Source: Elusimicrobiota bacterium (lineage in GTDB: Bacteria; Elusimicrobiota; Elusimicrobia; Elusimicrobiales; UBA9959). From it: 64,000 nucleotides of DNA. Where the stretch lies: the NCBI GenBank assembly GCA_016207645.1, contig JACQPH010000045.1:6610-70609 (forward strand), given 5' to 3'. Shown piece after piece: positions 4,207-55,523 of this stretch; within the stretch, counting starts at the first letter, position 1; every line of letters begins with the position of its first letter. The notes under the pieces are model-generated. The model had not been told where the DNA came from. It searched no databases and worked only from the letters and a program-made list of their open reading frames with translations. Both the position numbers and the translations under genes were made by a program.

Positions 4207-4212
4207 ATCCCC

Positions 4213-5307
<1,095 letters not shown>

Positions 5308-5318
5308 GCCGCGTGCCC

Positions 5319-7487: not shown

Positions 7488-7505
7488 TGGATTCCTTCGA
7501 TCGCT

Positions 7506-8474: not shown

Positions 8475-8487
8475 TAAAATCCTCCAC

Positions 8488-32552: not shown

Positions 32553-32593
32553 GGCTCCCGGCCCGGCCAGGTATACGAATCCGCCGGCGGTTT

Positions 32594-32926: not shown

Positions 32927-32941
32927 TATAATTTATCCTCT

Positions 32942-33238
32942 CTAGTGATAATCCATGTAATCCACCACATAGGCGTTTCCGTTTTTAAATTGGAAGATAA
33001 TACGCCAGTTGCCGGAAACCCTGACCGCCCAGTATCCTTTAAGCTCCCCTTTGAGCGGATGAAGAACCGAACCGGGATAATCCATATCGTTAATGACCGC
33101 AGCGGCATCCAGACGGTCCAGTATATCCGCCAGTTTCTGCGCCTGGCCCGGCTGGATGCCTTTCTTAGAGCCGGTGTAAAAGAACTTTTCCAAGCCTTTG
33201 TGTTTAAAATTCTCGATCACGGTTATAGTGTAACCCAT
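32942..33238 (-). CDS. higB: HigB-type toxin (RelE/ParE superfamily plasmid-maintenance killer)
   Basis: IENFKHKGLEKFF..KGELKGYWAVRVSGNWRIIFQF. Alternative GTG start at 33220 would give the canonical MIENFKHKGLEKFF N-terminus. Confidence 0.85.
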   Translation of the reverse strand: MGYTITVIENFKHKGLEKFFYTGSKKGIQPGQAQKLADILDRLDAAAVINDMDYPGSVLHPLKGELKGYWAVRVSGNWRIIFQFKNGNAYVVDYMDYH

Positions 33239-33255
33239 AGAGTTACACTTGTCAA
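33220..33255 (-). promoter_or_regulatory. Candidate higBA promoter TTGACA-17-TACACT placed 6 nt before GTG 33220 (leaderless geometry)
   Basis: The minus strand reads TTGACA AGTGTAACTCTATGGGT TACACT ATAACC GTG. The palindrome CGTTAT-G-ATAACG at 33281..33293 lies just upstream. Confidence 0.35.
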
Positions 33256-33299
33256 GAGTTGTTTTTAAGGCAACGTCGGGCGTTATGATAACGGGACGC

Positions 33300-33357
33300 C
33301 AGTTCGGTCCGGGTTGTTAGTAATAAGTCAGATAATCAACTACGTCCCGTATCTCCC
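33300..33357. repeat. Copy A of ~58 bp imperfect direct repeat
   Basis: CAGTTCGGTCCGGGTTGTTAGTAATAAGTCAGATAATCAACTACGTCCCGTATCTCCC aligns with 34793..34850 at roughly four-fifths identity, with two 1-nt indels (hand alignment). Confidence 0.7.
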
Positions 33358-33364
33358 ACCATTC

Positions 33365-34705: not shown

Positions 34706-34792
34706 GAGAACACGCCTCCGACTTATCCCTTCTGTTTTTTAAGCTTTGGACGGGGATAATGGAACGAAGTTGGCTTTGTGATTATTTACCCA

Positions 34793-34850
34793 CAGTTCAG
34801 TCCGGGTCGTTATAATAAGTCAAATAGCCAACTACACCCAATTATCTCCC
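34793..34850. repeat. Copy B of ~58 bp imperfect direct repeat
   Basis: CAGTTCAGTCCGGGTCGTTATAATAAGTCAAATAGCCAACTACACCCAATTATCTCCC. Lies between the XDH-L1 stop and the HEAT gene start. Confidence 0.7.
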
Positions 34851-34881
34851 GTTGTTTTTGGCTTACATCACACAGATATGA

Positions 34882-37191
34882 TCAACCCCGCTTCTTCAGC
34901 GCCGCCAGCACCTTGTCGGGGGTGAAGGGGGCGTCGAAGAGCCGGATGCCGCAGGCATTGTAGATGGCGTTGGCCACCGCCGGCAGCGGGCCGTTGATAC
35001 CTATCTCGGAGACCGACTTGGCGCCGAAGGGGCCGGCGGGCTCCCAGGTGGGGATCAGGAAGGTGCGCAGCGGCGGCGTGTCGGCCGCCGAGAAGATCTT
35101 GTAGCGGCGGAAAGAGGCGTTCAGCGGGGTGCCGTTGGTGGAGAATTCCATTTCCTCGGACAGCGTGTGGCTGATGCCGTTCAGCACCGCCCCGTCGTTC
35201 TGGCCCTCCGCCAGCTGCGGGTTGATCGCGGTGCCGCAGTCCACGCAGCTCACGTAGTCCAGGATCTTCACCACCCCGGTCTCCATGTCCACTTCCACCT
35301 CGGCGAAATTCGCCTGGAAGGGCGGCGGGGAGGTATGGGCGAAATGGGAGGCGGAGGCCGTTATCTGGTGCTGGTTATAATAGTACAGGGAAGTATTGGC
35401 CACTTCGGAGAGGGAGCAGGAAGCTCCGTCCTTGGCCACGACCTTCCCCCCTTCCAGCCGCAGCTCCTCTTTTTTCTGGTCCAGGATCTTCGCCCCGACT
35501 TCCAGTATCATCTCGCGCACTTTCTCGGCGGTCTTCTTCACGGCTCCGCCGGAGATGAAGGTGGTGGAGGAGGCGTAGGCGCCCACGTCGAAAGGCGTGA
35601 TATCGGTGTCTGAAGAAGTAACAATTATGTCGTCGGTTTTTATTCCCAGAACCTCGGCCGCTATCTGGGCGAGGATGGTGTCGGAGCCGGTGCCCAGGTC
35701 GGCCGCGCCGACCAGCAGGTTGAAGGAGCCGTCCTCGTTCATCTTCATCGTGGCCGAGGCCATGTCCACTTCGGGGATGCCGGAGCCCTGCATCATGCAG
35801 GCCGCGCCCACGCCGCGGCGGATAGGGCCCGACTGGGCGGCGTACTTCGCGCGCTTCTCGGCCCATTTGATCTCTTCCGTGCCTTTCCGGATGGCCTCGA
35901 ACAGGCCGGTGGAGGTAATGACCTGCTCCACGCCCTCGCGGCCCTCGCCCATGGCCTTGAACACCGGCGAACCCTCTCCAAGTTTGATGTAATTCATCTT
36001 CCTGAACTCTACGGGGTCCATGCCGATCTTGGCGGCCATCATGTCCATCAGGCATTCCCAGGCGAAGAAGCCCTGCGTCGCGCCATAGCCGCGGTAAGCC
36101 CCTGCCACCGGCATATTCGTGTATACGCTGCGGCCGATGAAGCGGATATTGTTCTTCACGCGGTACATCGGGATGGTATGCGAGCCGGAGCACATCATCA
36201 CGGTGAGAGCGTGCGAGCCGTAAGCGCCCGTGTTCAGGGTTATCTCCATCTCGGCGTCGGTGATGGTGCCGTCCTTTTTCACGCCGGCCTTCAGGCGGCA
36301 GGTGGCGGGATGGCGGGTGCGGGAGGAGACGAAGGTTTCTTTCCGGGTATATTCCAGCTTCACCGGGCGCTTGGTCTTGAGCGCGAGCGCGGCGACAATA
36401 TCCTCAAGGACTTCCTGCTTGGAGCCGAAGCCGCCGCCGATGCGCGGCTTCACCACGCGGATCTTCTTCACCGGGATCTTCAGGGCCTGGGCCACTATGC
36501 GGCGCACGTGGAAAGGGACCTGCGTGGAGGTACGCAGCACCAGCCTGCCGGAATTGTCGAAATGCGCTATCGTGACATGCGGCTCGATAGCGCAGTGCTG
36601 GAGGTAGGGGATCTTCCAACTGTGCTCGAAGACATGGTCCGCTTCCTTGAACCACTCTCCGTTCTTCACTTCGAAATCGAACCTGGCCGCGATATTGTGC
36701 TTCGCGTCCGGGATATTCTTTGAATCTTCCTCGTCGTGGATGACCGGGGCGCCGTCCTTCATGGCCTCGAAGGTGTCGAAGACCGCCGGCAGGACCTCGT
36801 AATCCACCTTTATCTTCAAAAGGGCCTCGTGCGCGGCTTCAGGGGTCTCCGCGGCCACGGCGGCCACGCGGTCGCCCACGAAGCGGACCTTATTGTCCAG
36901 CGTATAGGTGTCGTAAGGGGAAGGCTCCGGGTAGCCCTGGCCGGCGGTGGTATGCGGTACGCGGGGCAGGTCCTTGCAGGTGAGCACCGCTTTCACGCCG
37001 GGGACTTTAAGCGCGGCCGAGACGTCTATCTTTTTTATCCTGGCGTGGGCGTGCGGGCTCCAGAGTATCTTCCCGCACAGCAGGCCCTTGAACTCCACGT
37101 CGTCGGTGAAGGCCGGCTCGCCGCAGGCCAGTCCCAGCGCGTCCATTTTGATCACCGGCTTATTTACGACATTCAGATCTTTAGCATCCAT
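34882..37191 (-). CDS. Xanthine dehydrogenase-family molybdopterin-binding large subunit (set 1)
   Basis: ORF 34882..37218 trimmed to ATG 37191 (MDAKDLNVVNKPV), because the track start is a TTG inside the tandem repeat. GGGFGSKQE, conserved Glu in AKSVSEIG. Confidence 0.9.
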   Translation of the reverse strand: MDAKDLNVVNKPVIKMDALGLACGEPAFTDDVEFKGLLCGKILWSPHAHARIKKIDVSAALKVPGVKAVLTCKDLPRVPHTTAGQGYPEPSPYDTYTLDNKVRFVGDRVAAVAAETPEAAHEALLKIKVDYEVLPAVFDTFEAMKDGAPVIHDEEDSKNIPDAKHNIAARFDFEVKNGEWFKEADHVFEHSWKIPYLQHCAIEPHVTIAHFDNSGRLVLRTSTQVPFHVRRIVAQALKIPVKKIRVVKPRIGGGFGSKQEVLEDIVAALALKTKRPVKLEYTRKETFVSSRTRHPATCRLKAGVKKDGTITDAEMEITLNTGAYGSHALTVMMCSGSHTIPMYRVKNNIRFIGRSVYTNMPVAGAYRGYGATQGFFAWECLMDMMAAKIGMDPVEFRKMNYIKLGEGSPVFKAMGEGREGVEQVITSTGLFEAIRKGTEEIKWAEKRAKYAAQSGPIRRGVGAACMMQGSGIPEVDMASATMKMNEDGSFNLLVGAADLGTGSDTILAQIAAEVLGIKTDDIIVTSSDTDITPFDVGAYASSTTFISGGAVKKTAEKVREMILEVGAKILDQKKEELRLEGGKVVAKDGASCSLSEVANTSLYYYNQHQITASASHFAHTSPPPFQANFAEVEVDMETGVVKILDYVSCVDCGTAINPQLAEGQNDGAVLNGISHTLSEEMEFSTNGTPLNASFRRYKIFSAADTPPLRTFLIPTWEPAGPFGAKSVSEIGINGPLPAVANAIYNACGIRLFDAPFTPDKVLAALKKRG

Positions 37192-37202
37192 ATTCAGTCC
37201 CC

Positions 37203-37273
37203 AATCTCCAATCTCCAATCTCCAATCTCCAATCTCTAATCTCTAAATCTCTAACCTCTAATCTCTAACCTCT
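37203..37273. repeat. Heptamer tandem array, ~10 units AATCTCC/AATCTCT/AACCTCT (minus strand: TGGAGAT/TAGAGAT/TAGAGGT)
   Basis: Direct reading: 4x AATCTCC, 2x AATCTCT, AAATCTCT, AACCTCT, AATCTCT, AACCTCT. It fills the gap between the 2Fe-2S subunit stop (37265) and the large-subunit ATG (37191). Confidence 0.95.
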
Positions 37274-37768
37274 ACTCTTCAGCCTTTTAGCCGCGTTCTT
37301 CACGGCCTCTACCTGCTTCACATAGCCGGTGCAGCGGCAGAGGTTGCCGTCGAGGGCTTTGCGGATCTCGGCCTCGGTGGGGTCCGGTATCCTGTCCAGC
37401 AAATACTTGGAGGAAAGTATCATCCCCGGTATGCAGAAGCCGCACTGCACGGCGCCGGCCTCTACGAAAGCCTGCTGCAGCGGGTGCGGGTTATGCACGG
37501 AACCGAGCCCTTCGATAGTGGTGATCTCGCCGCCGTGGGCGGCTACGGCCGGGACCAGGCAGCCCAGCACCGGCTTCCCGTTCAGGAGCACCGCGCAGGA
37601 GCCGCAGTCGCCGGTATCGCAGCCCTTCTTCGCGCCTTTCCAGCCGTGGCGGCGCAGGGCGTCGAGCAGGGACTCCGCGTTCCTGACCGAGAGTTCCTTC
37701 TTTTCGCCGTTCACGGCCGCGGATATCCCGAAAAAACCTTTATCGGCGGCCAGCAGGCTGTTTTTCAT
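37265..37768 (-). CDS. XDH-family [2Fe-2S] small subunit (set 1)
   Basis: CDTGDCGSCAV plant-type cluster motif and QCGFCIPG..CRCTGY second cluster motif. Confidence 0.9.
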   Translation of the reverse strand: MKNSLLAADKGFFGISAAVNGEKKELSVRNAESLLDALRRHGWKGAKKGCDTGDCGSCAVLLNGKPVLGCLVPAVAAHGGEITTIEGLGSVHNPHPLQQAFVEAGAVQCGFCIPGMILSSKYLLDRIPDPTEAEIRKALDGNLCRCTGYVKQVEAVKNAAKRLKSRG

Positions 37769-38580
37769 ATTTTACCTTCCATGAAGCGCTTGAGCAGGTT
37801 AGAGGCGGCCGCGCAGCGGTACTCGCCGGCCCTGGCGGCTTCCAGTTCCGCGGCGAAGGCGGCGGCCGCGGCGGCCCCTTCTCCGGAGAGCATGGCCTTT
37901 TCCGCCTCGGGCGCCCGGAACGGCCTGGGCGAAAGCGCGCCCACGGCCGCGCGCGCCTGGGTCACGGACTTCCCCTTCTTCTCGGCGGAGAAGAAGAGGG
38001 TTATATAGGATTCCCAGCTGGACGCCGTCCTGGCCAGCTTAATGAACTCGCATTTCCAGTTCCTGGTCTTCGCGGGGATAATTGCTTCGGTTATCAGGCT
38101 GTCCAGCCCCGGCCTCAGGCCCAGGCCCGAGGTGTAGAGGTCCTGGAAATCTATAAGTTTTGCGCCTTTTCCGGTCTGCAGCCGCACCTTGGCGTCCAGG
38201 GCCAGCAGGACTACGGGGAAGATATTGAAGGAATGCGGGCGGGCTATGTTCCCGCCTATCGTGGCCATGTTGCGGATGAGCTGGGTAGAGCAGGCCGCCG
38301 CGGCCGCGGCTATGCTCCCTCCGGCCCAGGTACGGCAGAGCCTGGAGCGGTCTATCTCGTCGAAGGTGGCTCCCGCGCCGATGACCAGGTTCCCGCCCTG
38401 GAGCCTGATGTCTTTTATCGGCAGGTTCTTCAGGTCCAGGTAGGTTTCCACGGAATCGGGCAGGGTCTTGGACACCAGCGTGCCGCCGGCGAGAGCCATG
38501 GCTTTATATCTTTTATTCAGGAGCAGGGAGAGCGCTTCTTTCACTTTGGACGGACAGGCGTAGTATTTGATGTTTTTCAC
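37765..38580 (-). CDS. XDH-family FAD-binding medium subunit (set 1)
   Basis: ORF 37765..38655 trimmed to GTG 38580 (GGAGGA upstream, avoids overlap with the previous gene). LAGGTLV, IRNMATIGGNI. Confidence 0.8.
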   Translation of the reverse strand: MKNIKYYACPSKVKEALSLLLNKRYKAMALAGGTLVSKTLPDSVETYLDLKNLPIKDIRLQGGNLVIGAGATFDEIDRSRLCRTWAGGSIAAAAAACSTQLIRNMATIGGNIARPHSFNIFPVVLLALDAKVRLQTGKGAKLIDFQDLYTSGLGLRPGLDSLITEAIIPAKTRNWKCEFIKLARTASSWESYITLFFSAEKKGKSVTQARAAVGALSPRPFRAPEAEKAMLSGEGAAAAAAFAAELEAARAGEYRCAAASNLLKRFMEGKI

Positions 38581-38612
38581 GGTTCCTCCGGATAGATCCC
38601 GCGCGGGCCTCT

Positions 38613-39452
38613 TCAGGCCAGCGACTTTAAAGCGCGTTCGAGCAGGACCCCGCACATGTCCAGGCGGTAGGCCGCTTCGCTGCGGGTGTCGGTGATCGGT
38701 GAAGCTTCGGTCCTGACCAGGGCCGAGGCCTCCGCTATAGTTTCAGCCGAAAGCTTTTTATCGGCCAGGAAGGCGGAAGTGCGGGCCGCGTACAGCGGCA
38801 CCGGGGCCACGGAGCCGAGCGCCACGCGGACTCTCTTTACCGCGCCGCCGGAAAGCTCGGCCGTGACGGCTACCGCGGCTTTGGAGATACCGAAATAAGC
38901 GCGCGGGCCGAGCTTGAGGTAGGCGCCGGCATGGCGGCGCTTCCGTATCTCGAAGCCGAGTATCAGCTCGTCCTTTTTCAGCGCGGTCAGCTTCGGACCA
39001 AGGAAAAAGTCCACGAGGGGCAGGCGGCGCTTTTTCCCCTTCAGGGCGAGCAGGACAGAAGCCCCTTCGGCCACCAGGGAACAGGCGCCGTCGGCGCAGG
39101 GGCTGGCGTTGGCGGCGTTACCGCCCAGCGTGGCCATATTGCGCAGGCTGGGGCTGGCGAAATGCGGTATGGCCGCAACAAGGGCCGGGCACCAGCGCGC
39201 CGCAGCTTTGGAGCTTTCTATCTCGGAAATTTTCACCCCGGAGCCGATGAACAGGGAGCCTGCCGCCTCTTTTATGGAGCCCAGCTCGGGGAGGTCGCCT
39301 ATATCTATCCAGCACTCGGAGTGCTCAACTCCGGCAACTCCGGCGGTGACCAGGTCCGTGCCGCCGGCGAGATAGCGGCGGCGGGCGGGCAGGCCCGGCA
39401 GCATTTTCCAGAGCTCTTTGAGGTTAGAGGGCTTTACTATGATCTCGGGCAT
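38613..39452 (-). CDS. XDH-family FAD-binding medium subunit (set 2)
   Basis: YLAGGTDLV, LRNMATLGGNAANASP. 279 aa. Confidence 0.85.
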   Translation of the reverse strand: MPEIIVKPSNLKELWKMLPGLPARRRYLAGGTDLVTAGVAGVEHSECWIDIGDLPELGSIKEAAGSLFIGSGVKISEIESSKAAARWCPALVAAIPHFASPSLRNMATLGGNAANASPCADGACSLVAEGASVLLALKGKKRRLPLVDFFLGPKLTALKKDELILGFEIRKRRHAGAYLKLGPRAYFGISKAAVAVTAELSGGAVKRVRVALGSVAPVPLYAARTSAFLADKKLSAETIAEASALVRTEASPITDTRSEAAYRLDMCGVLLERALKSLA

Positions 39453-39459
39453 AAAGAAA

Positions 39460-39487
39460 GGGTAGAGGGTTTAGGGTAGAGGGGAGA
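39460..39487. repeat. Second heptamer array GGGTAGA GGGTTTA GGGTAGA GGGGAGA (plus strand), related to the 37.2 kb array but inverted
   Basis: Direct reading of the 37-nt gap between set-2 2Fe-2S and FAD subunits. A further GAGGTTAGAGGG lies at 39420..39431 inside the FAD gene. Confidence 0.8.
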
Positions 39488-39489
39488 GA

Positions 39490-39975
39490 CTACTTTTTTA
39501 TTTTCCGGGCTTTCCCGACCGCGGACAGCACCTTCTCGTAGCCTGTGCAGCGGCAGAGGTTGCCGGTCAGCCCCAGCTTGATCTCTTCGAGCGTGGCCTT
39601 CGGCCTGCGGCGCAGCAGCGCTTCCGAAGCCACTATCAGGCCGGGAGTACAGAAGCCGCACTGCACGGCCCCTTCGGCCATGAAGGTCTTCTGCAGCGGG
39701 TGCAGCCCGCCATCGCGGCCCTTTATCCCTTCTATGGTCACGAGTTCTTTGCCGTGGACCTGCACGGCCATCATCAGGCAGGAATTCACGGCCCTGCCGT
39801 CGAGCAGGACCAGGCAGGCGCCGCATTCGCCCTCGCCGCAGCCTTCCTTGGTGCCTTTCAGTCCGAGGTCCTCGCGGATAAATTCCAGCAAAGAGCGGGA
39901 AGAAGGGAGCTCCCGCTCCATGCTCACGCCGTTCACCCTGCATTTCAGGACGAACGGGCTTGTTGACTGTTTCAT
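39490..39975 (-). CDS. XDH-family [2Fe-2S] small subunit (set 2)
   Basis: CGEGECGACLV and QCGFCTPG..CRCTGY. Confidence 0.9.
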   Translation of the reverse strand: MKQSTSPFVLKCRVNGVSMERELPSSRSLLEFIREDLGLKGTKEGCGEGECGACLVLLDGRAVNSCLMMAVQVHGKELVTIEGIKGRDGGLHPLQKTFMAEGAVQCGFCTPGLIVASEALLRRRPKATLEEIKLGLTGNLCRCTGYEKVLSAVGKARKIKK

Positions 39976-42263
39976 CGGGCGGCGACCTTCTTCAGCTCTT
40001 TCCAGATCTTCTCCGGCAGCAGCGGTACCGAATTTACGCGGGCGCCGCAGGCGTTCTTTATAGCGTTGGCCACGGCCGGCGCCACGCCTATGAGCGGGAC
40101 CTCGCCCATGCCCTTGGCCTTATAGGGTCCCCCGGCGTAGGGTTTTTCTATGAAAGTTATATCATATTCGGGTTTATCGGCGGTAGTAGCGATGACATAG
40201 TCGGTAAAGTTGGGATTTACCATGATCCCGTTCTTGTAGATAAGGTTCTCGTACAGGGCCCAGCTCATGCCCTGGAGTATGCCGCCCTGGGCCTGCCCGA
40301 CGGCCAGACGCGGGTTGACTATTCTGCCCACGTCGTAGGCGGCCCAGATCTTCTTGACCTTCGCCACGCCGGTCTTCAGGTCCACCTCCACTTCCGCGGC
40401 GTCGGCCGAGTAGGAATAGATCACGTAGGCGTCGCCCTGGCCGTCCTCCATCCTGAAAGTGGTGCGGGGCGCGGCGTACCAGCCCTGCTCGCTCATCTTC
40501 AGGCGGCGGAACCAGCATTCGGCCACGACTTTCCTGAAATCCACGGACTTCCCGCCCATGGAGAAAATTCCGCCGGCCGCGACCATCTTTTTCGAGGCGT
40601 CGGCGCCGGCGGCGGAAAGCAGGCTGAAGGCGGTCTTAAAAATGCGCTCCCGTAGCGGCGCGGCGGCTTCGATGATGGCGTTGCCGCTCATCAGCGTGGT
40701 GCGGCTGGCGACGGTAGGGCCTGAATCGGGGACCTTCGAGGAATCGACTTCCTCCACTTTCACGCTTTCGTACGGAGCGTTCAGCGTCTCGGCGGCTATC
40801 TGCGCCAGCACCGTGAGCGCGCCCTGCCCCATCTCGGTATTCCCGACGTTCACTCCCACGGAGGAATCCTTGTAGATATTCACCAGCGCGCCGGCGCGGT
40901 CCAGGTAGCGCCCCTTCGCGCCCAGGCCCACGCCGTAATAAGTCGCCGAGAAACCTATCCCGGTCGCCACGTCGCCGGCCGCCGCCCGGGGCTTCGCCTT
41001 TTTGTCCCAGCCCGAACGCTTCCGCACCGTCTGGACCAGCTCTTTCAGGCCGCAGGAGGAGTTAAGTTTCTGCCCGGTCACCGTCCTGTCGCCGGGCTCG
41101 AGCAGATTTTTCAGCCTGAACTGCACGGGGTCCATCCCGACTTTCTCCGCCAGTTCGTCTATGAGCGACTCCTGGGCGAAGCAGACCTGCGGCTGGCCGA
41201 AACCGCGGAAAGCCCCGCAGGGGACCTTATTGGTGGCGGCGGCGTAGGTCTTTATATCCACGTTGGCTATCTTGTAGGGCCCGGCGGCGTGCACGGTGCC
41301 GCGCCAGAGCACTATAGGCGAAAGGGTGGAATAGGCCCCGCCGTCCAGCACGTAGTTCACGCGGCAGGCCGTTATCCTCCCGCTCTTATCCGCGGCGTAG
41401 GCCACGCGCGCCCAGCCGGGATGGCGCTTGGACATGCTCTGGAAATCCTCTTTGCGTCCGTAAATGAGCTTTACCGGTTTTCCGGTCTTGGCGGCGCAGA
41501 GGGCCGCGTGGGAAGCCACCAGGGCGGGCACGTCCTCCTTGCCGCCGAAACCCCCGCCGGTGACGGTCTGAAGTATCTTCACCTTGTGATACGGGATACC
41601 CAGCGCGGCGGCCACGGCGTCCAGCACGTAGAAGGGGCACTGCGTGGTGCTGTGCACCGTCATGCCGCCGTCGGACTCCGGCAGCGCTATGGCGCCCTGG
41701 GTTTCCAGGTAGGCATGCACCTGGTAATTCGTGCTGAACTCCCCCTCCGCAGTATAGGCGGCTTTTTTTAAGGCGGCGTCCACCGAGCCTTTTTTTATGA
41801 CGAAGCTGGAAATGACGTTATCATCGCCGAAAATTTTGACCGCGTCCTTCTCGAGCGCCTTCAGAGGGTCCTCGACGAAGGGCAGCTCCCTGTACTTTAT
41901 CTCCACCAGGGCGGCGGCTTTCCGCGCGGCGCGGGCCGTGGCGGCCACCACCAGCGCCACCGTCTCGCCGGCGAAGCGGGCCTCTTTCTCGGGCAGGAAG
42001 GGATAATCCTGCATCACCACCGGCCACTTGTTCACGCCCTTTATGTCCCTGTACGTGACCAAAGTCACATAGCCGGGCAAGCGCCGCGCACGGGCATCGG
42101 AAATTGAAAGTATCTTTATCCTGGGGCGCGGCGAGCGCACGGCGGCCGCGTGCAGCAGGCCGGCGAACTCCCTGTCATCCGCGTATTGCGCGGCCCCGAC
42201 GGCCTTTATCAAGGCGTCCTTCCTGGGCAGCGATCTCCCGATATATGATAATTTTTCTTTCAT
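39972..42263 (-). CDS. Xanthine dehydrogenase-family molybdopterin-binding large subunit (set 2)
   Basis: GGGFGGKEDV, conserved Glu in AKGMGEVP. 763 aa. 4-nt overlap with its 2Fe-2S subunit. Confidence 0.9.
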   Translation of the reverse strand: MKEKLSYIGRSLPRKDALIKAVGAAQYADDREFAGLLHAAAVRSPRPRIKILSISDARARRLPGYVTLVTYRDIKGVNKWPVVMQDYPFLPEKEARFAGETVALVVAATARAARKAAALVEIKYRELPFVEDPLKALEKDAVKIFGDDNVISSFVIKKGSVDAALKKAAYTAEGEFSTNYQVHAYLETQGAIALPESDGGMTVHSTTQCPFYVLDAVAAALGIPYHKVKILQTVTGGGFGGKEDVPALVASHAALCAAKTGKPVKLIYGRKEDFQSMSKRHPGWARVAYAADKSGRITACRVNYVLDGGAYSTLSPIVLWRGTVHAAGPYKIANVDIKTYAAATNKVPCGAFRGFGQPQVCFAQESLIDELAEKVGMDPVQFRLKNLLEPGDRTVTGQKLNSSCGLKELVQTVRKRSGWDKKAKPRAAAGDVATGIGFSATYYGVGLGAKGRYLDRAGALVNIYKDSSVGVNVGNTEMGQGALTVLAQIAAETLNAPYESVKVEEVDSSKVPDSGPTVASRTTLMSGNAIIEAAAPLRERIFKTAFSLLSAAGADASKKMVAAGGIFSMGGKSVDFRKVVAECWFRRLKMSEQGWYAAPRTTFRMEDGQGDAYVIYSYSADAAEVEVDLKTGVAKVKKIWAAYDVGRIVNPRLAVGQAQGGILQGMSWALYENLIYKNGIMVNPNFTDYVIATTADKPEYDITFIEKPYAGGPYKAKGMGEVPLIGVAPAVANAIKNACGARVNSVPLLPEKIWKELKKVAAR

Positions 42264-42282: not shown

Positions 42283-43803
42283 TCAGCCGACCTTGTATAT
42301 TACCACGGTTTCCGACTTTCCCTTCAGCGCGGCCTTGCCGAGCGGCGCGAAGGTCACGGCGGAACCCAGGGAGGCTTTCCCCCTGGAGTACGCGGCCTCG
42401 CTTACCAGGATATCGGTGTTGAACTCCCTGGTCTTGGACTCCAGGCGCGAGGCTATATTCACGGTATCGCCGATAAAGGTGTATTCCAGGCGCGCGGAAG
42501 TCCCGATATTCCCGCCGACCAGCTTCCCGGAGTGAATGCCGATGCCGAACTCCACCGTCCCCGGTGCTTTGCCGGAGGCGTTATACTCCGCCAGGGCCTT
42601 GCGCATCGCCATGGCCGCGCGCACGGCGTCGGCGGCGTAATCCTCGGAACCGAGCAGCGGCGTGTAGACGGCCATCACCGCGTCGCCGATGAATTTATTG
42701 ATAACGCCTTTGTTCGCGGTGATCGGCGGGGTGATATAGTGGAAATAATCGTTCAGGAAGCCGACCAGCATGGACGCGCTCATCTTTTCGCTCAGCGGGG
42801 TGAAGTTGCGGATATCGCAGAACATCACCGCCGCCTCCATGTCCTCGCCGCCCAGGTTCACCTTCTTGTTCTTGATCAGCTCCCGCGCTATCTCGATGGA
42901 CAGGTACTTGCCGAAGGTGTCCTGCAGTTCCTCGCGCTCTTTCAGCCCGTCCACCATCTCGTTGAAACCGGCCTTCAGGTTGGCTATCTCGTCGGTAAAA
43001 TAGATGCGGGTCTTTACGAAGTCGCCGCCGGCCACGCGCTTCATCTTGGCTATCAGCCCGTCCAGCGGCACCTGGACGCCGCTGTAGATGGTGGAAAGGC
43101 CGGTGAGCAGCAGCACGCCGGAGAGGAAGAGCAGCATCCCCAGGTCCTCCGCGAAAAAGTCCCAGGGCACCCTGTTCAGGAAGAGAATATAGATGAGGAT
43201 GAAGGGGATCACCGCGAAACCTGTTATCAGCGAAGAGACCTTCACGTAGAGTGGAATGGAGAAACCCGATCTCAGCCGGGAGAGTTCCTCCGGGGCGTAA
43301 AGAGCCTCTATCAGCTTCTTCTGCTTTGAAAGGTGGGCGTCTATATGCGCCACCAGCAGCGCGGCCTGAGCGACGAAGGCGACGCCGGCGGCGGCGTATT
43401 GCTGCCAGGATAGCCCGACGGCAAAACCCGGGACGGCCAGAGCGGTCGCCTGGGCGATCACCAGCATGAGGAAAGCGTCGCGGTAAATATTTCCCAGCCG
43501 GACCCGTATCTTCGCTTTAAGTATCTCGTCCGGCTTCCTCACGTAGAGGTAGGCCGGCCGGCCCCAGAGATAGGTGAGCATGATCATCACCAGGAAAGGG
43601 ATCCCGATGTTCACCCCGGTATGCCGGGTACCGAGGCTCATATTGACCAGCGCCCCGGCGGCCCTGGGTTCGCCGGAAAAAGCGACCATCGCTGTCCTGA
43701 AGAAGGCTGAATTGACGAAAGAGAGGAACAGCGGTATCGTCAGGAGATTGAAGAACTCCGTAAGCTGGCCCTTGCGCTCTTGCTGTTTTGGATCGCCGAA
43801 CAT
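42283..43803 (-). CDS. Membrane class III adenylate/guanylate cyclase with HAMP linker (class IIIb-like Lys/Thr specificity pair)
   Basis: Multi-TM N-terminus, HAMP-like segment (AKMKRVAGGDF..FNEMVDGL). Cyclase core FCDIRNFT, NKFIGDAVMAVY, EYTFIGDTVNIASRLES. Confidence 0.85.
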   Translation of the reverse strand: MFGDPKQQERKGQLTEFFNLLTIPLFLSFVNSAFFRTAMVAFSGEPRAAGALVNMSLGTRHTGVNIGIPFLVMIMLTYLWGRPAYLYVRKPDEILKAKIRVRLGNIYRDAFLMLVIAQATALAVPGFAVGLSWQQYAAAGVAFVAQAALLVAHIDAHLSKQKKLIEALYAPEELSRLRSGFSIPLYVKVSSLITGFAVIPFILIYILFLNRVPWDFFAEDLGMLLFLSGVLLLTGLSTIYSGVQVPLDGLIAKMKRVAGGDFVKTRIYFTDEIANLKAGFNEMVDGLKEREELQDTFGKYLSIEIARELIKNKKVNLGGEDMEAAVMFCDIRNFTPLSEKMSASMLVGFLNDYFHYITPPITANKGVINKFIGDAVMAVYTPLLGSEDYAADAVRAAMAMRKALAEYNASGKAPGTVEFGIGIHSGKLVGGNIGTSARLEYTFIGDTVNIASRLESKTREFNTDILVSEAAYSRGKASLGSAVTFAPLGKAALKGKSETVVIYKVG

Positions 43804-43841: not shown

Positions 43842-44447
43842 TCAGTTTTGCGGGCGGACGAGGGCTTCGTAGTCCTCGGGCGTGTCGATGTCGCGGACCA
43901 CTTCGGGGTCCTTGACCTCCAGGTCGGCTATACTCGCCAGCGGGTTATGGGTGACCCAGTGCAGCCCCTTTTCGAGCGGGCCTTCGAAGCAAAGGCTTCT
44001 GTACTTCGCAGGTATTATTATGGGGTGCCCGCGCTTCAGCCTGGAGTCGGCCGCCCTGAAGGTCCGGGGGATAACTATGGAGTCCTTGTTATAGGACCAG
44101 AACTCGACAAGTTTCTTATAGGTTTCCGGGAGCACGGCGGGCTGGTCGACCAGGCAGACCATGAAAGCCTCGGTAAATTCAGAAACGACCCCCAGCCCCT
44201 CCCGCAGCGAGGAGAGCTGCCCGTGCTCTGGCTTTAGGTTCAGTGCCACTTTCTCCTCCGCCGGCGTCCAGGCGGACAGGATCTCTTTCGAGGACCGGCC
44301 CAGCACCACGACCCTGTCTTCCACGCCCGCCGACCGGAGCGCGGCGCAGACATGCTCGATGAAAGGCTTGCCGCGCCACTGGAGAACGGCTTTAGGCCGC
44401 CCCATCCTGGCAGAATCCCCGGCCGCAAGTATAATGGCAGACAGCAT
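43842..44447 (-). CDS. mocA: MobA-like NTP transferase (molybdenum cofactor cytidylyl/guanylyl-transferase, MocA-like)
   Basis: MLSAIILAAGDSARMGRPKAVLQWRGKPF N-terminal motif. ~200 aa. Heads the XDH operon. Confidence 0.8.
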   Translation of the reverse strand: MLSAIILAAGDSARMGRPKAVLQWRGKPFIEHVCAALRSAGVEDRVVVLGRSSKEILSAWTPAEEKVALNLKPEHGQLSSLREGLGVVSEFTEAFMVCLVDQPAVLPETYKKLVEFWSYNKDSIVIPRTFRAADSRLKRGHPIIIPAKYRSLCFEGPLEKGLHWVTHNPLASIADLEVKDPEVVRDIDTPEDYEALVRPQN

Positions 44448-47432: not shown

Positions 47433-48809
47433 TCAGCAGCCGGCTTTCCGGTAAAGCCTGGCGGCGGCTTTATTGGCGCGCTCCGCCAGCTTGAACTCGT
47501 CGACATTGACCAGGCGGCCGTTCTTTACCGCCACTTTGCCGTTGACTATGGTGTATTTCGTCCGGTGGGAACAGCCGCAGAAAAGCAGCGAGGCCAGCGG
47601 GTCCGACTTTGAACCCGCGAAGTCCAGCCCGCTTACGTCGAAGACGGCTATATCGGCGGCCTTCCCGGGCTCTATGGAACCTATGTCGTCGCGCCCCAGC
47701 ACCGAGGCCCCGCCGCGGGTGGCCAGCCTGAAAGCGTCCCGCGCCGGCATGGCTTCCACGCCGGCCTTCACTCGCTGCACCAGCATGGCCTGGCGTATCT
47801 CGCCCAGCATATCGGAGGAGTCGTTGGAGGCCGAACCGTCCACGGCCAGGCCCACGGGGACCTTGTGGTTCAGGAACATCCGGATGGGCGCTATGCCCGA
47901 GCCTAGCCGCAGATTGGAGCAGGGGCAGTGGGCGGCACCGGTCCGGGTCCCGCCCATTTTTTTCGCCTCGGCCTCGTTTATGAAAACGCAGTGCGCGAAC
48001 CAGGCGTTACCCTCGGAAACCCAGCCGACGGACTCCATGTATTCCAACGGGCGCATTTTAAAGAGCTTTTTGCAGAAAGCCTCTTCATCTATGGTTTCCG
48101 CCAGGTGGGTGTGCATACGCACCCCCCATTTTTTGGCCATCACGGCGGTGAGCTTCAGCAGTTCCGTGGTGACCGAGAAAGGCGAGCAGGGCGCCAGCGC
48201 CAGGCGGGTCATGGCGAACTTCCGCGGATCGTGGAACTTGCGCACCAGCCGCTCGCAGTCCTTCATGATGAAGTCCTCGGTCTGCACCACGCTGTCCGGC
48301 GGCAGACCGCCTTTGGAGCGGCCCCTGGACATGGAGCCGCGCGTGGCGTGGAAGCGCATGCCCAGCTCGCGGGCCGCCTCTATCTGCGTGTCTATGAAGA
48401 AGCCGCTGTCCTTTTCGGGGAACAGGTAAAGGTGGTCGGAACTGGTGGTACAGCCGGTCAGCAGCAGCTCCCCCAGGCCGACCTGGGTGCTGGCGTAGAC
48501 GGCCTCGGGGTCGATATGCTTCCAGATGTCGTAAAGATAGATAAGCCAGTCGAAAAGCTTGGCGTCCTGCACCTTGGGCAAATTGCGGGTAAGCGTCTGG
48601 TAAAGGTGGTGATGGGTGTTGACGAAACCGGGCAGGACGACGCAGCCTTTCGCGTCTATGACCGCGTCCGCTTTGACCCTGAGAGCATTCCCGACCTTCT
48701 TTATTTCCGCGCCCTCGATGTAGACTTCGCCGCCCTTTATCTCGCTGCCCTTCCCGTCCATGGTGGCCAGCACCAGCGCGTTCTTTATCAGGATGGATCT
48801 TGTCGGCAT
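47433..48809 (-). CDS. Amidohydrolase of the 8-oxoguanine/guanine (isoxanthopterin) deaminase group
   Basis: ORF 47433..49091 trimmed to MPTRSILIKNALV. VNTHHHLYQTLTR metal motif, HTHLAE, AVDGSASND. Confidence 0.85.
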   Translation of the reverse strand: MPTRSILIKNALVLATMDGKGSEIKGGEVYIEGAEIKKVGNALRVKADAVIDAKGCVVLPGFVNTHHHLYQTLTRNLPKVQDAKLFDWLIYLYDIWKHIDPEAVYASTQVGLGELLLTGCTTSSDHLYLFPEKDSGFFIDTQIEAARELGMRFHATRGSMSRGRSKGGLPPDSVVQTEDFIMKDCERLVRKFHDPRKFAMTRLALAPCSPFSVTTELLKLTAVMAKKWGVRMHTHLAETIDEEAFCKKLFKMRPLEYMESVGWVSEGNAWFAHCVFINEAEAKKMGGTRTGAAHCPCSNLRLGSGIAPIRMFLNHKVPVGLAVDGSASNDSSDMLGEIRQAMLVQRVKAGVEAMPARDAFRLATRGGASVLGRDDIGSIEPGKAADIAVFDVSGLDFAGSKSDPLASLLFCGCSHRTKYTIVNGKVAVKNGRLVNVDEFKLAERANKAAARLYRKAGC

Positions 48810-48902: not shown

Positions 48903-51467
48903 ATGAAAAAGACCATAAAATTCCTTTCCGACGCGCAGCTCAAGAGCGAGGCGGACCGCTGCCTCTACTGCGAGGAGAAGCCCTGCAAGACGGCCTGCCC
49001 GGCGGATTGCTCCCCGGGGGATTTCATCATGGCCGTGCGGCAGATGGAGAATTCGGATTTCAAGCGCTCGGCCGCCCTGATCATGGGCCACAATACCTTC
49101 GGCGGCGTCTGCGGTGCGGTCTGCCCCGACTGGTTCTGCGTAAAGGCCTGCTCCCGGAAGATCTTCGACAACCCCATAAACATACCGGCGGTGCAGGCCG
49201 CCGTAGTGCAGAAAGCCAAGGAGTTGGGGATGATGCCCGAATTCAGGCCGGCTAAGCCCAACGGGAAGAAAGTCGCCGTAGTGGGCGCCGGGCCTGCCGG
49301 TTTAGGCGCGGCCGGCACGCTGGCGCAGCTGGGCTACAAAGTGGACATTTTTGAAAAGGCTAAGAAGACCGGCGGCGCCTGTAATCTTATACCGGAAAAG
49401 CGCCTGCCGGCGGAAGTACTCCGCACCGAGATAGAATTCGTAAGAACGCTGGGCGACATCTCTATCAAGACCGGCTCGGCGGTAAAGGACCCGGCCTCGC
49501 TGCTGAAAAAATACGGGGCGGTCATAGTGACCGCCGGCGTGGCGGACCAGATAAGGCTGAATATCCCCAACGAGGGCCTGGGAGTGGAAGGACTGGAATT
49601 CCTGGCGAACCGGAAAAAATATCCGCTCAAGGGGAAGAACGTGGCCGTGATAGGCGGCGGGGCCGTGGCGGCCGACTGCGCGATGACGGCGCTGGAAGCC
49701 GGGGCGCATAAAGCGGAGATCTTCACCCGGAAGAACATAGGCCATATCCAGCTTTCGCAGAAGGAACTGCACGACCTCATCGGGGCCGGGGTGAACATAA
49801 ACGCCAAATCCCGCATAACCGGCATTCTGGCCGCCGGAAAGAGGATAAACGGCATCACCGTGGCCCGCCTGGACGAGAAGGCTAACGATATCAAGGGGTC
49901 CTGCCAGGTCCGCTCCGACATAGACTTCGTGGTGCTGGCCATAAAGAACCTGCCGGTCTTCACCGACAGGAAGAAGAAGGGCGTTTTTCTCGCCGGGGAC
50001 TGCCGCAACGGCGCCTCCACCGTGGTGGAAGCCGTGGCCTCGGCCAAGAACGCCGCCCTCGAGGCCGACGCCTACCTGCGCGGCGGCAAGCCCGTCCCGC
50101 GCGCCGGGTTGTTCCCCGGGGCCATGAGCGCCTATGAAAAGAACATCATGAACGGCGAACTGGCCTATACGCGGAAGGTCTGCGGCAGGACCGATTCCTG
50201 GTCCACCGACAAGAAAAGCGCCGTCATCCTGAAAGGCAGGAACATGCTGCCGGTGGACCTGAGCACCGACTTCTTCGGCCGCAAGCTGCTTTCCCCGTTC
50301 CTTATCTCCGCCTCCCCCCACTCGGACGGCTACGACCAGGTGAAGCGCGCCTACGAGGCCGGCTGGCCCGGCGTGGTGATGAAGACCGCCTTCGACGGGC
50401 TGCACATACACATCCCCTCGGAGTACATGGTCACCTTCAGCGAGAGCACCTACGGCAATTCCGACAACGTGTCGGGCCACCCGCTGGACCGGGTCTGCGC
50501 CGAAGTGGCCAGGCTGGTGAAGGAATACCCGGACCGCCTCACCGCGGCCTCCACCGGCGGCCCGGTGACCGGGAACGACGAGGCCGACAGGAAAGCCTGG
50601 CAGTCGAATACCCTTAAGCTGGAAAAAGCCGGGGCTATGGCTATAGAATATTCCCTCTCCTGCCCGCAGGGCGGCGACGGCACCAAGGGCGATATCGTTT
50701 CGCAGGACCCCGAGCTGTCCGCCAGGATCATAGGCTGGGTGATGGAAGTTTCCGACCCCGAAGTGCCGAAGCTTTTCAAGCTGACCGGCGCCGTCACCGC
50801 CATCTGGCAGGTGGTGAACGCTATAAAGCGGGTTTACGCCGGATACCCGCATAAGAAGGCCGGCATAACGCTGGCCAATTCCTTCCCGGCTCTGGCTTTC
50901 CGCAAGCGCCTGTCCGGGAAAGGGAAATGGGAGGAAGGCATGGTGGTGGGCATGAGCGGCGAGGGCGTGGCCCCCATCAGCAATCTCACCATCTCCAAGG
51001 CCGTGAACCTGGGCGTGCCCATCTCCGGCAACGGCGGGCCCATGGACTACAAGGCCGCCGCGCATTTCCTGGCGCTCGGCGCGAAGTCGGTGCAGTTCTG
51101 CACCGTGGTCATGAAGCACGGCTTCGGCATCATAGACGAGCTCAACTGGGGGCTCAGCCACATGCTCGAGGAGAAAGGCTACAAGTCAGTCGAGGAATTC
51201 ATCGGCTGCGCCCTGCCCGGGCCCGTGACGAACTTCCCCGACCTCACCCCGGTAAAGAACATCCCGTCGGTGGACGCGGAGCTCTGCCGCCACTGCGGCA
51301 ACTGCGCGCGCTGCGGCTACCTGGCGGTGAAGCTGGACGGGGACAAGGTGCCTAAGTTCGACGCCTCGAAGTGCATAGGCTGCTCGCTCTGCGTCAAGAA
51401 ATGCTTCTCCGGCGCGCTGAAGATGCGCAAGCGCACCGCGGAGGAGCTCAGGGTTTGTCCGGAATAA
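48903..51467 (+). CDS. Dihydropyrimidine-dehydrogenase-like fusion: GltD/PreT-type FeS-FAD-NAD(P)H module + PreA/DHODH-type FMN barrel + 2x[4Fe-4S]
   Basis: N-terminus CLYCEEKPCKTACP, VAVVGAGPAGLGAA and AVIGGGAVAADCA Rossmann motifs. Central TIM-barrel part with IEYSLSCPQGGDG. C-terminal CRHCGNCARC / CIGCSLCVKKC. Confidence 0.85.
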   Translation: MKKTIKFLSDAQLKSEADRCLYCEEKPCKTACPADCSPGDFIMAVRQMENSDFKRSAALIMGHNTFGGVCGAVCPDWFCVKACSRKIFDNPINIPAVQAAVVQKAKELGMMPEFRPAKPNGKKVAVVGAGPAGLGAAGTLAQLGYKVDIFEKAKKTGGACNLIPEKRLPAEVLRTEIEFVRTLGDISIKTGSAVKDPASLLKKYGAVIVTAGVADQIRLNIPNEGLGVEGLEFLANRKKYPLKGKNVAVIGGGAVAADCAMTALEAGAHKAEIFTRKNIGHIQLSQKELHDLIGAGVNINAKSRITGILAAGKRINGITVARLDEKANDIKGSCQVRSDIDFVVLAIKNLPVFTDRKKKGVFLAGDCRNGASTVVEAVASAKNAALEADAYLRGGKPVPRAGLFPGAMSAYEKNIMNGELAYTRKVCGRTDSWSTDKKSAVILKGRNMLPVDLSTDFFGRKLLSPFLISASPHSDGYDQVKRAYEAGWPGVVMKTAFDGLHIHIPSEYMVTFSESTYGNSDNVSGHPLDRVCAEVARLVKEYPDRLTAASTGGPVTGNDEADRKAWQSNTLKLEKAGAMAIEYSLSCPQGGDGTKGDIVSQDPELSARIIGWVMEVSDPEVPKLFKLTGAVTAIWQVVNAIKRVYAGYPHKKAGITLANSFPALAFRKRLSGKGKWEEGMVVGMSGEGVAPISNLTISKAVNLGVPISGNGGPMDYKAAAHFLALGAKSVQFCTVVMKHGFGIIDELNWGLSHMLEEKGYKSVEEFIGCALPGPVTNFPDLTPVKNIPSVDAELCRHCGNCARCGYLAVKLDGDKVPKFDASKCIGCSLCVKKCFSGALKMRKRTAEELRVCPE

Positions 51468-51470
51468 ACC

Positions 51471-52796
51471 ATGAAAAAGACCATACTGATAAAGAACGGG
51501 ACCATAGTTACTCTCGGGGAAAAAAACAAGGTGCTGTCCGGCCACGCCCTGCTTATAGAGGACGGCCTCATAAAGAAAATAGCCCCCCGGAGCAGCTTCA
51601 AAGGGAAGTATTCGAAAGTTATCGACGCTTCGGGCAAGCTGATCATGCCGGGCTTCATAAACGCCCATATGCACTTCTACAGCACCTTCGCCCGCGGGCT
51701 CGGGAAGGCGGCCCCGTCGAGGAATTTCGTGGAGATACTCAACAACCTCTGGTGGCGGCTGGACAAGAACCTCACCAACGCGGACTCCTACTACAGCGCC
51801 CTGATACCGCTCATCGACGCGGTGCGCAAAGGCACCACCACCCTGCTGGACCACCACGCCAGCCCCTTCGCCATCACCGGCTCGCTGGCGGCGGTGGAAA
51901 AGGCGGTCAGGGAGGCCGGCCTGCGCGCCTGCCTCTGCTACGAGGTTTCGGACCGCGACGGGAAGGAGAAGGCCAGGGAGGGGCTCGACGAGAATTCCGC
52001 CTTCATAACGGCCTCGGCCGTCCGGAACGACAACACAGTGAAGGCCATGTTCGGCCTGCACGCCTCGTTCACCATTTCGGACGAGACGCTGGAGGAAGCC
52101 GCCTACCGCGGCCATAAGCAGGGCGCCGGCTTCCATATCCATACCGCCGAGTCCCAGGCGGACCAGCTGCACTGCGAATCCCACCACAAACTGCGCGTCG
52201 TGGAAAGGCTGCGCGACTTCGGCATACTGGGCAGAAAGTCCATAGCCGCCCACTGCGTGCACGTCAACGAGGCGGAGATAGATATACTCAAAGAAACAGG
52301 CACCGCCGTGGTGCACAACCCGCAGTCGAACGCCAACAACTCCGTCGGCATCGCCGACCTGGTAAAGATGTCGGCCGCCGGCGTGCTGGTGGGTCTCGGC
52401 ACCGACGCCATGACCGTGAACATGCTGGAGGAAGCGCGTTCCGCCCTCTGGCTTCAGCATCTGAAGCGGGACCCGTCGCAGGGCTTCATGGAAGCGGGCA
52501 ACGCCCTGCTGGTCAACAACGCGAAGATCGCGAACCGCTGCTTCAAGGGGCTGGGCGAGCTGAAGGAAGGCTTCGCCGCCGACCTGGCGATAATGGATTA
52601 TCTGCCCCCCACGCCGCTGGACGCCTCCAACTTCTACGGCCATTTGATATTCGGCATAAGCCAGAGCGCGGTGGACACCACCATAGCCGCCGGGCGGGTG
52701 CTCATGGAAGGCAAGAAGCTGAAACTGGACCTGGACGAGGAGGAAGTCACCCGCAAATCCGCGGAACTGGCGAAGAAGCTCTGGAAGAATTTTTGA
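51471..52796 (+). CDS. ssnA: SsnA-family putative aminohydrolase
   Basis: MPGFINAHMHFYSTFARGL resembles E. coli SsnA HNHFYSGLSRG. 441 aa. Starts 3 nt after the DPD-like gene. Confidence 0.8.
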   Translation: MKKTILIKNGTIVTLGEKNKVLSGHALLIEDGLIKKIAPRSSFKGKYSKVIDASGKLIMPGFINAHMHFYSTFARGLGKAAPSRNFVEILNNLWWRLDKNLTNADSYYSALIPLIDAVRKGTTTLLDHHASPFAITGSLAAVEKAVREAGLRACLCYEVSDRDGKEKAREGLDENSAFITASAVRNDNTVKAMFGLHASFTISDETLEEAAYRGHKQGAGFHIHTAESQADQLHCESHHKLRVVERLRDFGILGRKSIAAHCVHVNEAEIDILKETGTAVVHNPQSNANNSVGIADLVKMSAAGVLVGLGTDAMTVNMLEEARSALWLQHLKRDPSQGFMEAGNALLVNNAKIANRCFKGLGELKEGFAADLAIMDYLPPTPLDASNFYGHLIFGISQSAVDTTIAAGRVLMEGKKLKLDLDEEEVTRKSAELAKKLWKNF

Positions 52797-53552: not shown

Positions 53553-53669
53553 GAGCTAATTCAATCAAATACGGAGCGGAGCCGTATGAGCCGAAAGTAC
53601 CTGCCGGGCGGCGTCTTTCGGCCCGCCGGCACTGGGCCCTTTATCCGGGCCGCGCTCAGAACAGGCTGC

Positions 53670-55516: not shown

Positions 55517-55523
55517 CGTATAG

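Follow-up and report, generated by a model that had tools for sequence, protein, structure and literature searches.

The window analysed here, a 64,000-nucleotide (nt) stretch of an Elusimicrobiota bacterium genome, carries six co-directional genes on its minus strand (34882-42263). They are transcribed in the order L1-S1-M1-M2-S2-L2 and encode the molybdopterin (Mo; L), 2x[2Fe-2S] (S) and FAD (M) subunits of two enzymes. We consider it probable that these are two independent three-subunit enzymes from anciently separated branches of the xanthine dehydrogenase (XDH) family, namely an XDH (enzyme 1, L1-S1-M1) beside a three-gene counterpart of Escherichia coli XdhD-YgfM (enzyme 2, M2-S2-L2), within an Elusimicrobia purine island. 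Enzyme 1 would oxidise hypoxanthine or xanthine to urate, and enzyme 2 would reductively remove the C6 oxygen of urate to give 2,8-dioxopurine. The reductive 2,8-dioxopurine route was reportedly elucidated as late as 2025, from work on E. coli and gut clostridia; on this reading the window holds an unfused three-subunit form, in a new phylum, of this recently described kind of system.

Two preprints (bioRxiv 10.1101/2025.05.19.654654 and bioRxiv 10.1101/2025.04.24.650524, hereafter the 2025 preprints) identify SsnA as a marker of the reductive urate (2,8-dioxopurine) pathway. In this pathway XDH makes urate, which is reduced to 2,8-dioxopurine by XdhD-YgfM in E. coli or by XdhAC in C. sporogenes, after which YgfK or the PydA-like UacX, together with SsnA, reduces and opens the ring. 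According to the 2025 preprints, the electron donor for urate reduction by E. coli XdhD-YgfM is NADH, and the substrate of YgfK is 2,8-dioxopurine and not xanthine, so that the XDH-family enzyme encoded alongside these pathway genes should be a source of 2,8-dioxopurine. One of the two preprints already noted clusters of SsnA with XdhA/XdhD homologs in Elusimicrobiota. In the window, a DPD-like reductase and SsnA encoded nearby would then reduce and ring-open the 2,8-dioxopurine. With co-expression, NADH from enzyme 1 could feed enzyme 2; given the use of NADH by E. coli XdhD-YgfM, xanthine would then be converted to 2,8-dioxopurine in a redox-neutral way via NAD(H).

Subunits, active sites and ancestry of the two enzymes

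All six genes encode complete subunits of the XDH / molybdenum hydroxylase superfamily, of the three-subunit L, S, M type and with intact cofactor motifs (Table 1). Both L1 and L2 contain the Pfam domains hammerhead, MoCoBD_1 and MoCoBD_2, S1 and S2 each have all eight of the [2Fe-2S] ligand Cys residues, and the FAD motifs are present in M1 (AGGTD and TLGGN) and in M2 (AGGTL and TIGGN). M2 gives the weakest Pfam match, its C-terminal domain (CO_deh_flav_C) reaching 22 bits against 25.5. The AlphaFold model of M2 has a mean predicted local distance difference test (pLDDT) score of 91.4, and complete FAD subunits (CutM, NDH and glyceraldehyde oxidoreductase) superpose on it with template modelling (TM) scores of 0.80-0.86. 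The M2 open reading frame (ORF) is open to 38655, and its start is a GTG preceded by GGAGGA, a ribosome-binding site visible in the sequence; the L2 ORF is open to 37218 and starts at an ATG (MDA...), as in its relatives.

The two sets of subunits share 32% (L1/L2), 50% (S1/S2) and 29% (M1/M2) identity, and each is closer to orthologs of other phyla than to the other set, which rules out a recent tandem or inverted duplication. Much of this had been anticipated in an earlier note on this DNA, made from the sequence alone. It described two complete XDH-family molybdoenzymes encoded by six co-directional genes in mirrored order, with coordinates that proved exact and domains that proved complete in Pfam; it quoted motifs that are indeed present (GGGFGGK and KGMGEVP in L1, GGGFGSK and KSVSEIG in L2); it called the paralogs strongly diverged, in keeping with their 29-50% identity; and it judged from the reversed subunit order that a simple tandem duplication would not produce the arrangement. 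Its view of two different, intact enzymes that are not of the CO dehydrogenase type also agrees with what the residues, loops and domain sets suggest. Two details need correction. The order that it gave as a minus-strand reading is actually the plus coordinate order, and it reversed the overlaps and gaps: the 4-nt overlaps are at L1/S1 and M2/S2, and the gaps are at S1-M1 (37 nt), M1-M2 (32 nt) and S2-L2 (73 nt).

The evidence for the nature of enzyme 2 comes mainly from its large subunit. By blastp against the E. coli Mo domains, L2 matches XdhD best (39%, 516 bits), followed by XdhA (33%, 403 bits), as compared with 32% identity to L1; S2 aligns with XdhD residues 3-151. Orthologs of L2 were collected by scanning species-representative genomes with an L2-family alignment, which gave 80 loci (51-94% identity) spread over many bacterial phyla, with some archaeal metagenome-assembled genomes (MAGs) among them. 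In a neighbour-joining (NJ) tree the L2 family and XdhD form a clade in 99/100 bootstraps, to the exclusion of XdhA, the L1 family and other paralogs. A phylogeny of each subunit had been proposed in the earlier note, and for the large subunit this is its outcome.

The active site tells a similar story. At the positions of bovine E802, R880 and F914, L2 has Q259, C334 and Y369, while the catalytic Glu (E729) and the Gln767 equivalent (Q224) are kept. Across the L2 family the same three positions are occupied by Q, by C, N or V, and mostly by Y, with the catalytic Glu retained. L2 also carries an 11-residue insertion (Table 1) whose E416 is the equivalent of XdhD Glu606, for which a role in orienting urate towards C6 dehydroxylation has been proposed (the 2025 preprints, bioRxiv 10.1101/2025.05.19.654654 and 10.1101/2025.04.24.650524). 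An insertion of this type is found in XdhD and in 35/35 L2-family proteins, with the Glu invariant, and there is a gap at this place in XdhA, the L1 family, the sequence labelled L3 and other paralogs. L2 is thus placed in the XdhD clade, and M2-S2-L2 is a probable urate / 2,8-dioxopurine oxidoreductase.

Enzyme 1 is most likely a conventional xanthine dehydrogenase in its predicted function, with an active site largely of canonical type. In L1 the equivalents of bovine E802, R880, F914 and E1261 are E243, R321, F355 and E721, and these, like a Gln767 equivalent, are kept in all 12 L1 orthologs. The best match of L1 in the PDB is R. capsulatus XdhB (324 bits), and a homolog search with L1 returned generic names only, with no functional information. 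Of the Glu802, Arg880 and Glu1261 equivalents that the earlier note had singled out for comparison, L1 keeps all three and L2 only the last.

Several observations weigh against the assignment of one or both enzymes. L1 has Leu in place of Phe1009, as do 12/12 orthologs, and an insertion of 2 residues at that point, and it misses all XDH equivalog cut-offs: 539 bits against 783.65 for pucD, the best NCBIfam model, 491 against 780 for NF043082 and 456 against 849.5 for TIGR02965. L2 is only 39% identical to XdhD, has Arg at the XdhD Gln557 position, and has Tyr at the A1078 position, where Thr or Ser is reported for the C. sporogenes DOPDH. The concatenate of S2 and L2 falls below the cut-off of the XdhD model TIGR03313 (683 against 1101.9), and L2 scores slightly higher on the XdhA model NF043082 (713, cut-off 780); M2 reaches 52.8 against 241.5 on the FAD-subunit model TIGR03312, where the E. 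coli controls for TIGR03313 and TIGR03312 score 2123 and 490. The curated hidden Markov models (HMMs) leave the enzymes unassigned, with all equivalog cut-offs missed and L2 lying between the XdhA and XdhD models. The tree is distance-based and was built without clostridial DOPDH, purine hydroxylase and nicotinate dehydrogenase sequences. As for the pathway, the DPD-like protein is no YgfK ortholog, and the later genes HyuA, YgeW (ygeW/uacY), YgeX, YgeY and YqeA were not found by tblastn in the 64-kb window.

The earlier note had suggested successive hydroxylations of a purine ring. Sequential action is indeed what we regard as most probable, but hydroxylation by both enzymes is probably wrong for enzyme 2, because L2 has no equivalents of Glu802, Arg880 and Phe914 and falls in the clade of XdhD, the characterised member, which acts on urate reductively, by dehydroxylation. 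Some anaerobes possess a purine hydroxylase distinct from their XDH, and this counts in favour of two oxidative enzymes acting in succession, an XdhA-like or purine-hydroxylase-like L2 making xanthine and L1 making urate. So do the NF043082 score of L2, which is near the cut-off and nominally above its TIGR03313 score, the rank of XdhA as second-best E. coli match of L2, and the reversibility of XDH-family reactions described in the 2025 preprints. We nevertheless think this succession unlikely. The L2 family groups with XdhD and not with XdhA, and L2 bears the Glu606 insertion, a feature of XdhD that XdhA does not have. Relative to the length aligned, TIGR03313 (683 bits across roughly 600 positions) is a better fit for L2 than NF043082 (713 across roughly 755). 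In many phyla, moreover, the L2-type module is the sole XDH-family enzyme beside SsnA, YgfK and HyuA, and that pathway needs 2,8-dioxopurine, not xanthine.

It is more doubtful still that enzyme 2 acts on a non-purine substrate, such as an aromatic acyl-CoA, an aldehyde or an N-heterocycle, and stands beside the XDH by coincidence. The best solved structure for L2 is the alpha subunit of 4-hydroxybenzoyl-CoA reductase (4-HBCR; 369 bits), and several L2 orthologs are named 'aldehyde oxidase' in databases. However, L2 reaches only 557 against 994.55 on the HcrA model TIGR03194, and M2 has a plain FAD-subunit fold with no 4Fe-4S insertion or Cys cluster, scoring 36 against 404.55 on the HcrB model TIGR03195. 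Purine/urate pathway genes neighbour the module in the window and at 23 of the 80 orthologous loci, where SsnA is no more than 10 kb away from the L2 ortholog, and several orthologs carry the xdhD label 'putative selenate reductase molybdopterin-binding subunit' at the Joint Genome Institute (JGI).

Gene order and the junction of the two modules

Gene order around the L2 orthologs was surveyed using ORFs and BLAST. The order is M-S-L at 47 of the 80 loci and M-[S.L fused] at one; other fused S-L genes, resembling XdhD, occur at seven, so that eight L2-family members of the 80 are S-L fusions. A further seven loci have S-L without a directly adjacent FAD gene, and four lack an S gene in the 250 nt adjoining L2, with an S2-like gene further upstream in each case. 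At the remaining 14 the upstream sequence was too short or L2 was not called. Any other order, such as L-S-M, was found at none (0/80). E. coli ygfM-xdhD, with the FAD gene followed by the fused FeS-Mo gene, has the same M-S-L order, whereas the L1 orthologs are arranged L-S-M in 12/12 cases, two Asgard archaeal loci among them. The mirror arises because each family keeps its own order. The mirrored order itself is without special meaning: an XDH and a probable urate reductase simply lie next to each other. The earlier note had presented it as notable, while allowing that it would be less so if the sets belonged to independent enzymes commonly found in this arrangement, and this is largely what the counts show.

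The single-strand L1-S1-M1...M2-S2-L2 layout recurs in at least eight further Elusimicrobia contigs, and it is therefore no chance feature of this contig. The junction between the modules varies (related loci are labelled here by three-digit L-numbers). The two modules have the plain layout in the window, L002, L003, L010 and L011. In L004, L005, L012 and L034 a TldD/PmbA-like pair separates M1 from M2, a difference that arose recently, since the L2 of L012 is 89% identical to that of the window. The L008 modules are separated by genes for MocA and XdhC and by a third L-S pair, and most L2-family loci lack an L1 module within 10 kb. No constraint that would keep M1 and M2 adjacent is visible.

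The third L-S pair of L008 (5861-8679) is very divergent, being about 30% identical to L1, L2, XdhA and XdhD and having Ser at the Glu802 position. It has no FAD gene of its own and lies directly upstream of M2-S2-L2, giving L-S-M-S-L around a single FAD gene.

This single FAD gene between two S-L pairs might hint at a shared-subunit variant of a more radical scheme. In it the XDH and the XdhD-type enzyme would be physically coupled, with electrons from xanthine C8 passing from FAD to FAD, or via the shared subunit, to urate C6. Such a redox-neutral 'xanthine to 2,8-dioxopurine isomerase' would need no free NAD(H), and it would be selenium-independent, because only XdhC-type genes and no YqeB/YqeC maturation genes accompany the modules. 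We regard it as a long shot. Known structures of the family form dimers via the large subunits, with the FAD subunits peripheral, and this counts against a single mixed super-complex built through the FAD subunits, in which electrons from xanthine would be passed directly to urate reduction. The earlier note had centred such a complex on the two adjacent FAD subunits; M1 and M2 are indeed adjacent and co-directional, a promoter/terminator scan (undecisive on operon structure) found no minus-strand terminator-like site within the cluster, and the combined chemistry from xanthine through urate to 2,8-dioxopurine would be redox-neutral, but the complex is scarcely credible and, because the FAD-gene adjacency is not conserved (L004, L005, L012, L034 and L008), unsupported, with no L1 module near most L2-family loci and with a free NAD(H) pool that would couple both reactions without contact.

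Several further features of the modules and their spacers were seen. A 7-bp tandem repeat of about 10.7 copies of GGAGATT/AGAGATT (minus, that is coding, strand) at 37203-37278 covers the spacer between S2 and L2 together with the stop codon of S2, and every unit holds a GGAG Shine-Dalgarno-like core; the repeat was not found at the equivalent spacer of nine relatives. The S1-M1 spacer (39459-39488) contains a shorter heptamer repeat of 4.3 copies. GC content dips to 0.53-0.56 at 32001-36000, as compared with about 0.62 elsewhere, over a HEAT-repeat gene, an HTH gene and the 3' half of L2. The L1-S1 pair is split in L004 by a gene for a CsgG/FlgO-like lipoprotein of about 430 amino acids (aa) at 2921-4213, and L011, L012 and L034 have L1-S1 gaps of 1.1-1.3 kb. 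L002 has four unrelated genes between S1 and M1; its inserted 573-aa and 280-aa genes show no similarity to the two ORFs (580 and 290 aa) that lie downstream of the window's L2.

TldD/PmbA-like pairs, encoding proteins of 545-570 aa, are found repeatedly between, or just upstream of, XDH-family modules in Elusimicrobia (L004 5601-9004, L005 5647-8998, L012 about 5004-8400, L034 about 5108-8500 and L029 4929-8340). A literature search connected TldD/PmbA with neither purine nor urate metabolism, and it turned up no work on XDH in Elusimicrobia. In L043, from another Elusimicrobiales genome (see also L029 and L037), the 8-oxoguanine deaminase and MocA are 91% and 80% identical to those of the window and the XDH modules are different: the L043 L2 ortholog is 56% identical, and a convergent L-S pair is 34% identical to L1 and has all canonical residues including Phe1009. 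XDH modules seem to have been exchanged between close relatives.

The purine-catabolism island

The genes around the cluster are listed in Table 1. SsnA and the DPD-like reductase lie 11.7-15.6 kb from L2, with the DPD-like gene immediately upstream of SsnA, as ygfK is in E. coli, and a hut operon beyond SsnA. The DPD-like fusion scores 209 bits on PreA and 139 bits on YgfK, both below cut-off, and by analogy with YgfK or UacX it is a candidate 2,8-dioxopurine reductase. The product of 8-oxoguanine deaminase is urate, and an ortholog of this gene (ORF open to 49091 in the window) adjoins the M2-S2-L2 module at 12 of the 80 loci. At least three of the pathway genes YgfK, HyuA, YgeY, YgeW, YqeA and YgeX are present at nine of the 80, usually with no other XDH-family enzyme nearby.

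Table 1. Features of the six-gene cluster and of its neighbourhood, in window coordinates.
Feature	Position	Strand	Description
L1	39972..42263	-	Mo (molybdopterin) subunit, enzyme 1, 763 aa
S1	39490..39975	-	2x[2Fe-2S] subunit, enzyme 1, 161 aa; Pfam Fer2 + Fer2_2
M1	38613..39452	-	FAD subunit, enzyme 1, 279 aa; Pfam FAD_binding_5 129 bits + CO_deh_flav_C 74 bits
M2	37765..38580	-	FAD subunit, enzyme 2, 271 aa, YgfM position; Pfam FAD_binding_5 86.6 bits
S2	37265..37768	-	2x[2Fe-2S] subunit, enzyme 2, 167 aa; Pfam Fer2 + Fer2_2
L2	34882..37191	-	Mo (molybdopterin) subunit, enzyme 2, 769 aa; XdhD clade
Insertion in L2	35926..35958	-	11 residues, KAMGEGREGVE; E416 = XdhD Glu606 equivalent
HAMP-adenylate cyclase gene	42283-43803	-	Upstream, between MocA-like gene and L1
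MocA-like Mo-cofactor cytidylyltransferase	43842..44447	-	Pfam NTP_transf_3; TIGR03310 137 bits, below cut-off of 186
8-oxoguanine deaminase family gene	47433..48809	-	NF006055 640 bits (cut-off 532)
DPD-like fusion	48903..51467	+	PreT-like FAD/NAD(P)H + PreA-like FMN + 4Fe-4S; Pfam Fer4_20, Pyr_redox_2, DHO_dh, Fer4
SsnA amidohydrolase	51471..52796	+	NF005540 538 bits (cut-off 444); TIGR03314 509 bits (cut-off 455.5)
YkuD-like gene	52857-53552	-	
SIS gene	53670-54668	-	
HAD gene	54665-55516	-	
HutI-like amidohydrolase	55524-56774	-	Followed by DUF520, hutU, hutH

MocA orthologs accompany the modules in L005, L007, L008, L010 and L043. No gene for an XdhC-type Mo-cofactor insertion chaperone was found in the 64-kb window; in the relatives L003, L004, L005, L010 and L011 an XdhC-type gene sits directly before L1. 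No tblastn homolog of YqeB or YqeC was found in the window, and YqeC gave 0 matches in 87 related loci, where only XdhC-like genes of ordinary length were seen. Three plus-strand ORFs downstream of SsnA (53355-56810), which have no Pfam match, were considered as novel pathway genes and rejected as shadow ORFs in a 62% GC genome, the minus-strand genes there being the real ones.

Significance and comparison with known systems

Our results suggest that the pathway's first enzyme is widespread among environmental phyla in a three-subunit form whose Fe-S and FAD subunits are intact; these phyla include Elusimicrobia, Riflebacteria, Verrucomicrobiota, Bipolaricaulota, Thermotogae and Chloroflexi as well as some archaeal MAGs. 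In many cases no selenium-trait genes accompany it, and in the window it stands beside a conventional XDH. Such enzymes are candidates for an oxygen-sensitive, possibly selenium-independent, NAD(P)H-linked urate reductase. The LGEG(K/R)EG insertion could serve as a simple annotation marker for genes now labelled 'aldehyde oxidase' or 'selenate reductase'.

The closest parallel is E. coli XdhD-YgfM. L2 falls in the XdhD clade and shares with XdhD the Glu606-bearing insertion, a Gln after GGGFGSK, Tyr at the F914 position, Ile at the F1009 position and the absence of an Arg880 equivalent. The gene order (FAD, FeS, Mo) is also the same, with the FAD gene immediately upstream and a 4-nt overlap, and ssnA, a gene for an NAD(P)H-type ring reductase and mocA are associated with both. 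The two differ in that S and L are fused in E. coli but are encoded separately, as S2 and L2, in the window. In E. coli XdhD the N-terminal 'Fe-S' domain (L006 25317-25811, residues 1-165) is without any Cys, whereas all eight Fe-S ligands are retained in S2; they are retained also in most fused L2-family proteins and lost in one fused relative, L084. An insertion of about 35 residues in the N-terminal region of XdhD is absent from L2, and M2 resembles YgfM weakly, at 25% identity. At the pathway level, a DPD-like fusion replaces YgfK here, and neither yqeB nor yqeC is nearby.

The clostridial systems, C. sporogenes XdhAC (DOPDH) and C. difficile XdhD with UacX, share with enzyme 2 the proposed reaction and the position in the pathway, and C. 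difficile likewise has a PF01180 (PydA/DPD-type) reductase in place of YgfK. Published descriptions set the clostridial enzymes apart, as being without a FAD subunit, not using NAD(P)H and dependent on selenium. In the window, by comparison, the FAD subunit is intact, a FAD/NAD(P)H domain forms part of the reductase itself, and selenium-trait genes were not seen.

Enzyme 1 resembles R. capsulatus XDH, bovine xanthine oxidoreductase and B. subtilis PucCDE in the canonical residues of L1, in having XdhB and PucD as best matches, and in its set of Mo, 2x[2Fe-2S] and FAD cofactors. It differs from the canonical XDHs in its three separate subunits in L-S-M order, in the Leu at Phe1009, and in having no XdhC gene in the window, though relatives carry one. 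E. coli XdhABC is likewise a three-subunit purine-oxidising enzyme, and its genes lie near a urate-degradation cluster, so that in E. coli too the XDH and DOPDH genes share one genomic island. Its gene order is L-M-S, however, and XdhA, which is 31% identical to L1 and 33% to L2, is the closest relative of neither; XdhA also has no Arg880 equivalent and no Glu606 insertion.

CoxMSL and QorMSL share the M-S-L gene order with enzyme 2, and the overall folds are common to these enzymes and to 4-HBCR. The Cu-binding Cys loop of CoxMSL, VAYRCSFR, is absent, the corresponding sequences being GAFRGFG in L1 and GAYRGYG in L2, and on the CO dehydrogenase model TIGR02416 L1 and L2 score 247 and 307 against a cut-off of 991. 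The 4Fe-4S insertion of the 4-HBCR beta subunit is absent from M2. From CO dehydrogenase, quinoline oxidoreductase and 4-HBCR alike, the two enzymes are further distinguished by a genomic context of purine metabolism.

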